Below are positions 943-5,524 of a stretch of 64,000 bases of DNA, in pieces. The stretch is from Candidatus Obscuribacteraceae bacterium (GTDB lineage Bacteria; Cyanobacteriota; Vampirovibrionia; Obscuribacterales; Obscuribacteraceae): assembly GCA_044226015.1 (NCBI GenBank), contig JBGAHS010000011.1, positions 192,001-256,000 on the forward strand, in the 5' to 3' direction. The notes under the pieces were generated by a model. It saw only the letters and a program-made list of their open reading frames with translations. It did not search any database and was not told the origin of the DNA. Both the position numbers and the translations under genes were made by a program. The first letter of the stretch is position 1, and the number at the start of each line of letters is the position of its first letter.

Positions 943-1851
943 CTAATGACTCCCGCCCGCCAAAATTTTGACGCTATGGAAGATGGCCGGAATAATTGCG
1001 TCCATACATTCTTCAACGGCTCTACTTGCACCGGGTAAAGTAACTATGAGCGTTTTCCCCCTGATTCCCGCGATACCACGCGAAAGCATCGCCATCGGCA
1101 TGCGCTCTTGTCCATAAACACGCATAGCTTCTGAGATTCCGGGAACCTCCATGTCGATTATGCGCCGCACGACTTCTGGCGTTCTATCACGAGGTCCCAA
1201 TCCTGTGCCGCCAGTACTTATTAGCAAATCAAAGCGTCCGCGGTCAACCATTTCCTTTATTGTCTTCTCAATCTCAATTTCGTCATCGGGAACAACTTTA
1301 TACTGTCCAACAGTCACATGTTCTTTTTCCAATCGTTCAACAATCAATTTGCCTGAAGCATCCTGCTTCTTTCCATCTGATACTGAATCTGATACCACCA
1401 AAACCGCAGCCTTAATTGCTTTGTTGCGATCAACAGAATAATCAGACTTGCCACCACGTTTCTCCAGGAGACGAACACCAGTTATTTCCATGGTTTCATC
1501 AAACACTTTAAGCATGTCGTAAATTGTCAGTGCAGCTACAGAGGCGGCAGTAAGCGCTTCCATCTCAACACCGGTTTTATAGATTGCTTTTACCTGAACT
1601 CGTATCTCAATTTCGCTGTCTTTCAAGTCAAAGTCAACTTGAACGTAATCAACAGGAATCGGATGGCAGTAGGGAATGATTTGATGGGTATTTTTTGCAG
1701 CTTGAATCGCAGCTACCTTAGCAACCGGTAGGGGGTCGCCCTTTGGCACTTCGTTATTTCGAATCTTTGCTATAAGCCCCGAACTTGCTTTCAAAGTGGC
1801 TGCAGCCCAGGCTTTGCGAAGCGTTTTGGTCTTCTGGCTTACATCTTTCAA
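943..1851 (-). CDS. moaC: Fused molybdenum cofactor biosynthesis protein MoaC-MogA/MoaB
   Basis: MoaC motifs IIPYCHP, TGVEMEALTA, IYDMLK and KRGGKS, followed by a MogA/MoaB domain (VVSDS, DASG, GGTGLGPRDRTPE, LSRG, LPG). Confidence 0.93.
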   Translation of the reverse strand: MKDVSQKTKTLRKAWAAATLKASSGLIAKIRNNEVPKGDPLPVAKVAAIQAAKNTHQIIPYCHPIPVDYVQVDFDLKDSEIEIRVQVKAIYKTGVEMEALTAASVAALTIYDMLKVFDETMEITGVRLLEKRGGKSDYSVDRNKAIKAAVLVVSDSVSDGKKQDASGKLIVERLEKEHVTVGQYKVVPDDEIEIEKTIKEMVDRGRFDLLISTGGTGLGPRDRTPEVVRRIIDMEVPGISEAMRVYGQERMPMAMLSRGIAGIRGKTLIVTLPGASRAVEECMDAIIPAIFHSVKILAGGSH

Positions 1852-1944: not shown

Positions 1945-2712
1945 ATGAAGAGTCCATGGCTGAATATAATAGCGCTGTTGGTGCTGGTCTTTCAGTATCT
2001 ACCGATTATCGTTCTTATTGTTTTCAGCTTCGATCAATCAAAACTTGCAATCGCCTGGACAGGCTTTACGCTTGACTGGTACAAAGCTCTTAAGGACGAA
2101 ACTACTCTTATAAGCGCTTTTCGAAACAGTTTGCTTGTAGCTTCCGTCAGTGTAAGTTTTGCAGCTGTGATGGGAACCATGGCTGCCATTGGACTGGCAC
2201 GTTTGCGTTTTGCTGGAGAAGGCGTTTACCGTGCCCTTGTGATGCTACCGATTATTATTCCTGAAATTGCTATGGCAGTTGCGGCACTAACCTTGTTCAT
2301 CGCTATGAAATTAAGCTTGAGCCTGGCAACAATTATCGTTTCACACATCGTTTTTTGCGTGGCTTACGTAACGCTTACAGTCATGGGAAGGCTGGAAGGC
2401 ATGGACCCGAAACTTGAGGAAGCCGCACAAGATCTCGGCGCACCACCACTGGTGGCTTTTTTCAAAATAACACTGCCCTTGCTAATGCCAGGCATTGTAG
2501 CCGGCTGCCTGCTCGCCTTCGTGCTTTCTCTCGACGACTTTATCATCACTCAGTTTACAGCCGGAGTAGGCGACACAACATTGCCTTTGTGGATATACGG
2601 GTCCGTTAAATTTGGAGTGAAACCAACAATTAATGCGCTGAGTACGCTCATGATTTTAGTCACAGTCGGTACTTCGCTTACAGCAGAGGCGATTCGGCGG
2701 AAAAATGTCTAG
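1945..2712 (+). CDS. potC: Polyamine-type ABC transporter permease (PotC/PotI family)
   Basis: YLPIIVLIVFSF, GFTLDWY, EAA loop LEEAAQDLGA, SLDDF, TTLPL. Confidence 0.85.
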   Translation: MKSPWLNIIALLVLVFQYLPIIVLIVFSFDQSKLAIAWTGFTLDWYKALKDETTLISAFRNSLLVASVSVSFAAVMGTMAAIGLARLRFAGEGVYRALVMLPIIIPEIAMAVAALTLFIAMKLSLSLATIIVSHIVFCVAYVTLTVMGRLEGMDPKLEEAAQDLGAPPLVAFFKITLPLLMPGIVAGCLLAFVLSLDDFIITQFTAGVGDTTLPLWIYGSVKFGVKPTINALSTLMILVTVGTSLTAEAIRRKNV

Positions 2713-2766
2713 TTCTTAATTTACCTGTTGGCATGTATACTGAATTAAGCCGGAGGATAGATTAAC

Positions 2767-3258
2767 TTGCTCAATCGCAAACACTTAGCGGCAGCCTTCG
2801 CGAGCCTGTGCCTGATGCAGACAGCATCATTTGCAGGAAACCTCACTGCTCCAAAAATGGACGAGGCAGTGAAATCGTACAAGGATAGGCAATACGCTCA
2901 ATCTCTGGCTCAATTTCGGCAGCTTCACAATTCCGGAACCTGCAATGAGCTGATTCACTACTACATGGCTCTTTGTTATCAGGGAATGAATCAGATTTCG
3001 TCAGCTCGCACCGAATACGCTACGGTCATGAAAGGGCGCTCAACAGCTCTTCGGCAAAACGCTCAGTATGCGTTGAGTCAGATAGATCGCTGGAACCGAC
3101 ACAGATCGTACAGCGGGAATGGTCCAAGCAACTGGCAACAAATGCCTTTGATGGCATCAAATCGTAAGGGTGGCATTAGCACGACGAGCTCTGGTCCGGG
3201 CGGTCCCATCAAAGAAATCATAATAGACATGCCTGCACCCAGCGGTGGCGGTTGCTGA
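2767..3258 (+). CDS. Exported TPR-like protein with Gly/Ser/Pro-rich tail ending GGGC-UGA; candidate selenoprotein extending to 3264
   Basis: GGAGG before the TTG start; signal peptide ending ASFA; TPR-like HYYMALCYQGMNQ; see findings for the UGA and SECIS. Confidence 0.75.
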   Translation: MLNRKHLAAAFASLCLMQTASFAGNLTAPKMDEAVKSYKDRQYAQSLAQFRQLHNSGTCNELIHYYMALCYQGMNQISSARTEYATVMKGRSTALRQNAQYALSQIDRWNRHRSYSGNGPSNWQQMPLMASNRKGGISTTSSGPGGPIKEIIIDMPAPSGGGC

Positions 3259-3288
3259 CATTAACCCCAAAGTGATAGGTCATCACTT
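3256..3288 (+). promoter_or_regulatory. Candidate bacterial SECIS element after an in-frame UGA
   Basis: TGA 3256-3258, 11-nt spacer, then stem AAGTGAT (3270-3276), loop AGGTC, stem ATCACTT (3282-3288). Confidence 0.5.
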
Positions 3289-3350
3289 AACTAACAAGAC
3301 ACTGCAAGCCTCAATGAAAACCACGCACGACTTTGTTCCGCATGATTCAA

Positions 3351-4312: not shown

Positions 4313-5524
4313 ATGAATTTCTCGCTTGAAAAATCAGATTCAAACCCACTCCAGCTGAAAGGCACACAGGGTGAGCGTCAGCTGAATCTTTTAGACTTAC
4401 GCACTAGCAGCTCAGAGCGAGAGCAGCAAGTAAAAATGCGAGCGATTGGAGAAAGCAAGAAAGGTAGCGATGCACAGATTTCGCTGCCAGAGCTCAGTGC
4501 AGAAAAAAACACGAGAAATAACGAGACTTCTAGTAAAGTAAGTGAGTCAAAAGCAGAATCATTGCCACCAAATAAGCCACTAGAACTTAAGAACGAAAAG
4601 GCCGTAGAGCAAGAAGCAAGAGAGCAAGAAGCTCGCCTATATCCAGAGCTTTCTTTTAGCAAGAGAGCTGCAGATGTGCTTGCAGCAGCCGCAGGAACTG
4701 CCAGAGAAAAATGGGATCAGGCTAATGCTCTTTTCCATGTAGCAGAGATTCAAGTTGAGAAATATATTGATCTCCAGGGTGGCATCCAAAAGATGTTCCA
4801 CAAGGTGTCTCAACTTGCAGATGAAATTTATAACGTCATGGACAATTTCGTTAAAGGCAATAGGGGCATGAAAATACCAGATAGCCCTGAAAAACCTATA
4901 CAAGAAGATAGTTTACGCCAGCAGCTGAAAAGCCTGAATAAAGACGAAAGACTCGCGGCAATGCGCGGCGAGAAGGGTTCAGCCCTCAGGGAAGGTATAT
5001 TCAAAATTTGCGACGACGAGGAAAAAGATGCCTTCAATGAAATCGATATTGCACTAAACAAAGTGCAATTGCACTCGTCAATTAAACTGCAACATGCACT
5101 GGCAGCCAATAAGTATGCTGCCGAAAATAACGATATCAGTGCCAAGATACTCTCTGAAAACATTTTGAAGTCTATCGCTGCCTTAGACCCCGACACTTAC
5201 AAAAACAGTCCCGAAATCCATGGGCTCATTCTGCAATCAGAGCGAGGTGAACGAATGGATTTGAGTGAAGGCAAGGCTCTTTCAACAGCTTTGACCGCAG
5301 AGGCTCAAAAAGTCATTCAAATGACTCTGGAAGGACCTGATGCAGCCTTCGATGGTGACGGCAGAAAACAAGGCGCTGAGCAAGCAGCTAAATTTCTGGC
5401 TGCCGCGCTGGCTACGAACAAATCAGTCTGCCAAAACGTCTGGAGCAGCTGGGATTATGCAAAAAAATACAATTCCATTTTTTCAGTAGCCGAGTCACTT
5501 GTTTCTCAAACGCCGCAAAAATAA
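4313..5524 (+). CDS. Hypothetical helical protein with a disordered charged N-terminus
   Basis: 403-aa ORF filling the gap between recognisable genes; no motif recognised. Confidence 0.7.
   Translation: MNFSLEKSDSNPLQLKGTQGERQLNLLDLRTSSSEREQQVKMRAIGESKKGSDAQISLPELSAEKNTRNNETSSKVSESKAESLPPNKPLELKNEKAVEQEAREQEARLYPELSFSKRAADVLAAAAGTAREKWDQANALFHVAEIQVEKYIDLQGGIQKMFHKVSQLADEIYNVMDNFVKGNRGMKIPDSPEKPIQEDSLRQQLKSLNKDERLAAMRGEKGSALREGIFKICDDEEKDAFNEIDIALNKVQLHSSIKLQHALAANKYAAENNDISAKILSENILKSIAALDPDTYKNSPEIHGLILQSERGERMDLSEGKALSTALTAEAQKVIQMTLEGPDAAFDGDGRKQGAEQAAKFLAAALATNKSVCQNVWSSWDYAKKYNSIFSVAESLVSQTPQK

Follow-up and report, generated by a model that had tools for sequence, protein, structure and literature searches.

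SELENOS and SELENOK, two ER membrane proteins, have disordered tails in which selenocysteine (Sec) follows Gly-Gly close to the terminus (PMC7090344; bioRxiv 10.1101/2021.05.15.444318): in SELENOK, Sec is residue 92 of 94 within a disordered segment (bioRxiv 10.1101/2021.05.15.444318), and SELENOS, which is disordered at its Gly-Gly-Sec-Gly terminus, shows reductase activity in vitro (PMC10298544, PMC7090344). Mammalian thioredoxin reductase ends in Gly-Cys-Sec-Gly and contains a flavin domain; in an engineered E. coli thioredoxin reductase gene, the SECIS element lies behind the stop codon (PMC11431864, PMC10298544). In the UXX-star (NF041114, NF041211) and KCU-star/DUF466 (NF033934) families, Sec is found a few residues from the C-terminus (PMC13188914), with the UXX-star proteins being glutaredoxin-like (model name gluta_UXX_star_2) and a GxGU motif listed for family 2 (PMC13188914). 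SaoC (NF040734), as described in the Haft and Gwadz preprint, exhibits approximately 158 aa, a signal peptide, a C-terminal Sec and a 7-bp SECIS with a GGU loop behind the stop, all of which are reminiscent of the gene analysed here; it ends in Cys-Cys-COOH or Cys-Sec-COOH, is mostly a lipoprotein, belongs to an anaerobe operon and rarely contains Sec (3/52). Finally, Sec thioredoxins (UxxC; in this lineage, TPR-thioredoxin fusions) carry Sec in a folded catalytic domain with an in-frame SECIS.

The gene analysed here (the window copy) is located at 2767..3264 (+) of a 64-kb window, the whole stretch of DNA that was analysed, from the genome designated G000. It had been described from the sequence alone as a 163-codon ORF with a TTG start at 2767 and the end TGC-TGA-CAT-TAA, and both letters and coordinates proved correct: TGC occupies 3253-3255, TGA 3256-3258, CAT 3259-3261 and TAA 3262-3264. 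The features of the locus, together with a control gene from the same genome, are as follows:

943-1851 (-): moaC-mog fusion
1945..2712 (+): potC-like ABC permease gene, directly upstream of the window copy
2752..2756 (+): Shine-Dalgarno-like GGAGG, 10 nt 5' of the TTG start, read from the sequence and of presumed function
2767..3264 (+): full readthrough gene, 165 aa, putative end GGGC-U-H followed by TAA
2767..2835 (+): predicted cleaved signal peptide, approximately aa 1-23, hydropathy peak 2.27 (simple rules)
2854..3114 (+): predicted five-helix TPR-like domain, aa 30-116, AlphaFold2 pLDDT >90 over the helices
3100..3123 (+): family motif HRxYxGxG, aa 112-119, conserved in 110 sequences
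3124..3255 (+): predicted disordered Gly/Ser/Pro-rich tail with the end GGGC, pLDDT 44-63
3256..3258 (+): UGA, putative Sec164 by comparison with homologues
3259..3264 (+): His165 codon and probable true stop TAA, by second-stop conservation across the family
3270..3288 (+): putative SECIS hairpin, 7 bp, AGGUC loop, entirely 3' of the stop codon
3351-4082 (-): LprI-domain protein
4313-5524 (+): 403-aa protein
G000 C1:283729-284118, L200:730-1089 (-): SelW/Rdx selenoprotein (CGAU) with AGGTT SECIS, the control gene

The window protein was matched in 34 of 36 same-family genomes and in 0 of 24 outside, and a profile matched 89 of the 104 genomes of the taxonomic family. A search of 400 other genomes of the phylum returned two weak matches to the N-domain, neither with the tail, and no family match was obtained in viral contigs or in a metagenome scan: in the genomes searched, the family is confined to one taxonomic family. 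We analysed 145 distinct homologous ORFs, with 28 further matches and some weaker listed ones lying outside this set; classes were assigned by protein features and not by stop codon, the profile having been seeded with UGA-ending members. The short-tail class (motif RxYxGxG followed by no more than 80 aa, no thioredoxin) comprises 89 genes from 78 Obscuribacterales genomes, and 87 of these, in genomes that are related and not independent, end in TGA, with one TAA and one TAG; TGA is found in 13/39 true stops used as control and in 1645/5876 stops (28%) of the G000 background. Two more members with TGA and hairpin fall outside the motif rule. A second stop follows UGA in frame within three codons in 80/87 members and after one to seven codons in 87/87, compared to only 2 and 9 of 87 with a stop within three codons in the other two frames (background approximately 13%), and its identity is mixed (TAG 32, TGA 28, TAA 27). 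Directly after UGA, Arg is encoded in 48/87 members (using all six codons) and Gly in 21/87 (using all four). These codons appear to behave as coding, and part of the Arg/Gly codon bias could stem from selection on the base after UGA and not on the residue. A quick tree of 96 columns, with one Cys-form row mislabelled and from which we claim no order of events, places 82 of 85 Sec-tail rows on one branch (SH-aLRT 95) together with 7 other rows.

The sequence-only reading had cautioned that no sel genes are present in the window, a caveat that now falls: G000 (8.19 Mb, 92% complete) contains selA, selB and selD above curated cut-offs together with a tRNA-Sec with UCA anticodon, and named homologues assign it to Obscuribacterales/Melainabacteria. 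The sel genes of G000 are spread over three contigs; its selD (C9:631344-632994, +) is a Cys form, with the next gene YedF/SirA-like by eye. A Sec-type formate dehydrogenase was not found in G000 by PF04879, the single match having an open 725-aa frame. Sec use is wide in this non-photosynthetic sister lineage of Cyanobacteria, with selA in 83/104 genomes of the same taxonomic family. Since the selB cut-off of E 1e-70 was too strict (60/104 genomes), searches for selA and tRNA-Sec were added, and all 78 genomes with the short-tail class then exhibited Sec machinery: selA in 69, selB in 7 more and tRNA-Sec in the last 2 (G005, G071). In six genomes that are each at least 91% complete (G001, G011, G023, G030, G035, G084), none of selA, selB and tRNA-Sec was found, and no UGA-tail member was seen there among the loci retrieved (one G030 match lies outside the set).

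Conservation of the UGA together with a downstream hairpin had been named as the comparison to make for the window copy, and it is what the orthologs display: UGA is kept in 87/89 short-tail homologues, and a hairpin of 5 or more pairs whose five-base loop has G as second base follows in 77/87 UGA members versus 3/39 control stops. The loop is of the type AG(G/U)UU (AGGTT in 52, AGTTT in 11 members), and several of the ten members without a scored hairpin keep this apex with a single mismatch. In an alignment of 16 sequences, 112/112 cells are paired and 6/7 pairs are compensated; with 73 sequences, which were selected for hairpin presence (2 of 75 left out), 96.9% of 511 cells are paired and 7/7 pairs compensated, compared to 36-65% in slid controls. 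For the stem covariation, 0/500 shuffles were as high in pairing and score. SelW served as a control: amongst the 30 best-scoring Rdx loci, the hairpin is present in 17/17 UGA forms and in 0/13 Cys forms, with the G000 copy showing CGA-UGA followed by the AGGTT hairpin. As it is found after UGA in the SelW UGA forms and is absent from the Cys forms, we take the hairpin to be the SECIS of this lineage. Its stem lies entirely 3' of the second stop in 71/77 members: Sec being near the C-terminus, the SECIS is free of coding constraint and sits in the 3' untranslated region. Approximately 70 natural non-coding SECIS variants may read out what bacterial SelB needs (an invariant loop G, a 7-8 bp stem, no bulged U), which would be useful for recombinant selenoprotein design. 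Three members (L028, L133, L136) end in U-QRxGxCP and have the SECIS farther from UGA (loop at approximately 30 nt). The possibility of a Sec tail shared generically by many unrelated proteins was also considered, as the pattern GGYAGGTTRCC seemed enriched in some genomes, and was rejected: 0/39 retrieved sites (all 19 in G018, 20/28 in G015) lie behind a gene-ending UGA. In G000, a 481-aa ORF (C1:666409-667851, +) ending ACP-TGA-NG-stop with a 7-bp hairpin is a separate Sec candidate.

Taken together, UGA in 87/89 genes, the in-frame second stop, the covarying hairpin, the SelW control and machinery in 78/78 genomes make it very likely that this selenoprotein family is real, and on this comparative evidence its members almost certainly decode UGA as Sec. 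If UGA were instead an ordinary stop, with the hairpin acting as terminator or stability element and the Gly-Gly end resembling a sulfur-carrier or sorting signal, then 38/87 members would end in GG, a moaC-mog gene is indeed nearby in the window and a U-run is present behind some family hairpins; this leaves unexplained the near-exclusive UGA, the in-frame second stop, the synonymous Arg codons, the invariant G of the loop, the presence of an identical hairpin in SelW genes and the link to Sec machinery, and with the window hairpin not being terminator-like we consider it very improbable. A narrower doubt concerns the window copy itself, whose hairpin (AAGTGAT 3270-3276, loop AGGTC 3277-3281, ATCACTT 3282-3288) is a perfect 7 bp at a spacing of 11 nt from TGA and yet is not significant in single-sequence folding (-5.9 kcal/mol, z -1.39 to +0.96 in four windows; equalled by 19-169/200 shuffles over the four windows and by 19-33/200 in the two short ones): it exceeds chance only by comparison with homologues. 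The published bSECIS model (PMC13188914) describes a 3-9 nt loop, a 4-16 bp stem, G in the first two loop positions, a loop 16-37 nt from UGA and an energy limit of -7.5 kcal/mol, with exceptions admitted; the window copy agrees in loop (5 nt), stem (7 bp), G (position 2) and spacing (18 nt), and at -5.9 kcal/mol it does not reach the energy limit (ViennaRNA, UGA+42 nt, the published model having used its own settings), which 82/87 family members do (ViennaRNA). It is the joint weakest among the 87 members (median -13.6 kcal/mol). Rfam contains no family matching it, and a covariance model built from the family, which is too short for genome searching, missed the window copy in a genome-wide search of G000 and returned one chance match. 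A loose hairpin of the same type follows 83/5876 ORF stops in G000; among 61 hairpins checked there, a long ORF, UGA and an AGGYY hairpin at the usual distance are combined in the window copy only. The family could therefore be real with the SECIS of the window copy weakened, such that translation mostly stops at UGA, leaving a GGGC end with Cys163 in place of Sec: the stem is AU-rich, the AGGTC loop is the sole case among 78, the energy is low in magnitude and a Cys immediately precedes UGA. We regard this as improbable, as the 7 pairs, all Watson-Crick, could only have arisen from the GC-rich consensus through compensatory changes, and as spacing, apical G and the His-stop end are retained, with a G007 member of the same GGGC-U-H end exhibiting a strong hairpin. 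Readthrough as Sec, as the sequence-only reading had proposed, hence remains our favoured reading with machinery, UGA, second stop and hairpin all conserved, and we put the probability that the window copy decodes its UGA as Sec164 at roughly 0.88.

The same reading had likened the hairpin to that of fdhF, which holds in part. The E. coli fdhF minimal element (PMC3834832) has GCAGGT in common with the family consensus; its bulged U is absent from the window copy and from the SelW elements here, and it pairs A with the U after GGUC (PMC3834832), whereas in the family the A-U pair mostly encloses GGU, and the window copy has an open 5-nt loop. Spacing and apex letters thus agree with fdhF, whilst the register differs.

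Concerning the protein, export had been proposed for the window copy, and by simple rules a signal peptide is predicted for it; among homologues, the N-terminus is hydrophobic in 85/88, with an A-x-A-like site in 78 and a lipobox-like site in 4. In the AlphaFold2 model of the window protein, five helices are predicted with confidence and the tail is of low confidence, TPR domains being the best structural matches (Z 12.8, rmsd 2.0, 90 aligned). The antiparallel helix pairs of the model match TPR structures, as had been anticipated; values such as Z 12.8 are common among helical repeats, so that the match shows fold class only. Pfam gave no TPR match for the window copy, Foldseek no match at E 0.001 and the ESM Atlas generic TPR clusters only. 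In the motif HRxYxGxG, R and the first G are invariant and Y and the second G at least 90% conserved (110 sequences). A Gly/Ser/Arg tail of 9-45 aa (29% Gly) follows, mostly ending Gly-Sec-Arg/Gly, with Sec within the last five residues in 82/87 and a median pI of the tail end of 9.5. Beyond residue 45 the median best 19-aa hydropathy is 0.3 (maximum 2.1), which speaks against a single transmembrane anchor in the mature proteins. The residue before Sec is Gly in 72/87 and Cys in 3/87 members, so that the vicinal Cys-Sec pair, which had been put forward as a redox or metal-binding arm, appears to be a local feature of the genus of the window copy; with Gly before Sec and Cys-Sec rare, the tail is analogous to SELENOS/SELENOK and not to thioredoxin reductase. 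Cys is found up to 8 residues upstream of Sec in 15/87 and downstream in 3/87; 7/85 have Cys neither at the conserved positions of the domain nor in the tail, there is no conserved resolving Cys, and the idea that such a Cys lies in the domain in some members and in the tail in others was rejected, as no complementarity was found.

Cys-ended relatives were also identified. In G001 (91% complete), where selA, selB and tRNA-Sec were not found, the syntenic ortholog, flanked by a potC-like gene and by ileS (both identified from their similarity to window genes), is Cys-tailed, ending RCQPN-TAG. Database relatives end GCH, GCQ, CGRR or CGRH; the alignment of these and of the G001 ortholog with the Sec tails is loose and concerns the last few residues only. 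Ten CGRR/CGRH genes with DNA show mixed stops and a weak hairpin after the Cys codon in 1/10, and this group appears to consist of sister paralogs with a different tail, one of them in G000 (C6:138106-138399 region, +; L020), which has the same N-module and ends SNGCGRH; the CGRR-ended group is present in at least 9 other genomes. By rule, 42/145 homologues combine the same N-domain with a fused thioredoxin, a few rows being loose matches. One such TPR-thioredoxin from G000 (C8:208770-209462, +; L201:471-1160), whose N-terminal module shows 35% identity over 78 aa to that of the window protein, appears to be an exported selenoprotein with WUGPC and an in-frame 8-bp SECIS; WUGPC-type forms account for approximately 16/145 homologues, many with a different hairpin (TTTGCGCCCGTGTT). 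By eye, the signal-plus-TPR module is a lineage-wide export module: in G000 it also heads Cys thioredoxins (C9:311124, C8:417489, C8:233996, C8:89101), apparent aspartyl-protease-like proteins (C4:70895, C1:452522, C6:196653) and an HExxH metalloprotease-like protein (C7:247997).

What the Sec residue would do is the weakest part of our reading. With SelB decoding the window UGA as Sec, and His, stop and hairpin downstream, the signal peptide would export the TPR-like protein to the periplasm, where the TPR groove may dock on a partner and the C-terminal selenol attack an oxidised cysteine or disulfide of this partner; re-reduction might be performed by Cys163 in the window copy and, in most members, by an outside thiol, e.g. 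the exported TPR-thioredoxin paralogs. We favour such a redox arm, tethered in the periplasm, since thioredoxin takes the place of the Sec tail in sister proteins, and rate its chances as even. Alternatively, the inserted Sec could make the tail a periplasmic chaperone or sink for a soft metal (Cu, Hg, Ni) or metalloid, with no turnover. The Cys-Sec-His end of the window copy fits this idea, CU motifs are described for the metal-handling selenoproteins SaoL, HgcA and MerT (Haft and Gwadz preprint), and three relatives have His-rich tails (P0129, P0136, P0157; protein sequences only); as most members exhibit a lone Sec amid Gly and Arg, His follows at +1 in 3/87, no metal transport genes recur nearby and the upstream permease is best described as PotC and not ModB, a metal role seems unlikely. 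Rather less probable is a covalent latch or switch, in which Sec forms a diselenide or selenenyl-sulfide to a second copy or partner, or in which selenium determines the Gly-ended versus Sec-ended form: this would suit a protein that lacks both a catalytic fold and a fixed resolving Cys, both forms would coexist if recoding is only 30-40% efficient as in E. coli (PMC4513850), and tandem paralogs are found in five loci of one genus (L140, L141, L143, L147, L149; ends CGPxG-U-R and GGG-U-N); against it, the replacement of the tail by thioredoxin in sister proteins argues for turnover.

In comparison with the described systems, no TPR protein is found among the 119 prokaryotic families tabulated in a 2026 catalogue (PMC13188914), consistent with the sequence-only reading not having recognised the architecture; the main text of deep-Sep (PMC12013277) and the main text and part of the supplement of BSepDB (PMC13326102) do not mention TPR or Melainabacteria, and a literature search of non-subscription papers gave no paper on such a family. 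NCBIfam 20.0 and Pfam contain no family for the window protein (the readthrough form matched 0 families at E 0.001), and the SaoC, UXX-star and KCU-star models are not among 13 weak NCBIfam matches at E 0.1. The family is apparently uncatalogued, its decoding chemistry being known and its architecture unusual. Unlike in SaoC, Sec is the rule here, Gly precedes Sec, the predicted fold is TPR-like and no NCBIfam model matches; the window protein likewise matches none of the UXX-star and KCU-star models. With thioredoxin reductase, the window copy shares Gly-Cys-Sec with Sec at the penultimate position, whereas the flavin domain is absent and Cys-Sec is restricted to 3/87 members; the engineered layout with the SECIS behind the stop would be natural here. 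Sec thioredoxins share the N-terminal module and decoding system with the family, which carries a bare tail in place of a folded domain. A Gly-rich, basic, disordered tail end with near-terminal Sec is common to the family and SELENOK/SELENOS, a working likeness and not membership: those proteins are ER membrane proteins without TPR, whereas this family is predicted to be exported, TPR-like and free of a membrane anchor, and the likeness is best read as convergence, homology not being expected. Somewhat tentatively, and with a little less than even confidence, we see in the family a lineage-wide class without catalytic fold, in which an exported TPR adaptor bears a bare Gly-Sec-Arg tail converging on SELENOK/SELENOS, with an unconstrained 3' UTR SECIS exposing the SelB-binding optimum, as part of an exported Sec redox network with TPR-thioredoxins in Obscuribacterales. 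All database copies sampled end at UGA, unnamed or called hypothetical or TPR, so that the reactive residue is invisible, and discovery methods needing homology beyond UGA would miss this class. The family would also allow a single Sec on a disordered tail, as yet an open question in SELENOK and SELENOS, to be studied in a small soluble protein.

The genomic neighbourhood gives no functional clue: in a scan of 92 neighbours, genes for redox or selenium functions were not recurrent. A potC-like gene is also found upstream of at least 15/87 members (short flanks), with ileS or plsC downstream and otherwise varied neighbours; in the window, the LprI-domain gene and the 403-aa gene sit between the window copy and the plsC/ileS neighbours seen in relatives. 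Short contigs from two metatranscriptomes, approximately 98% alike, cover 2760-2942 only, short of UGA and hairpin, and give a weak hint of transcription of the gene region. Elsewhere in G000, 18 tRNA genes lie within 2.3 kb (C10:356333-358584), as is typically seen in mobile elements or phage-like islands.
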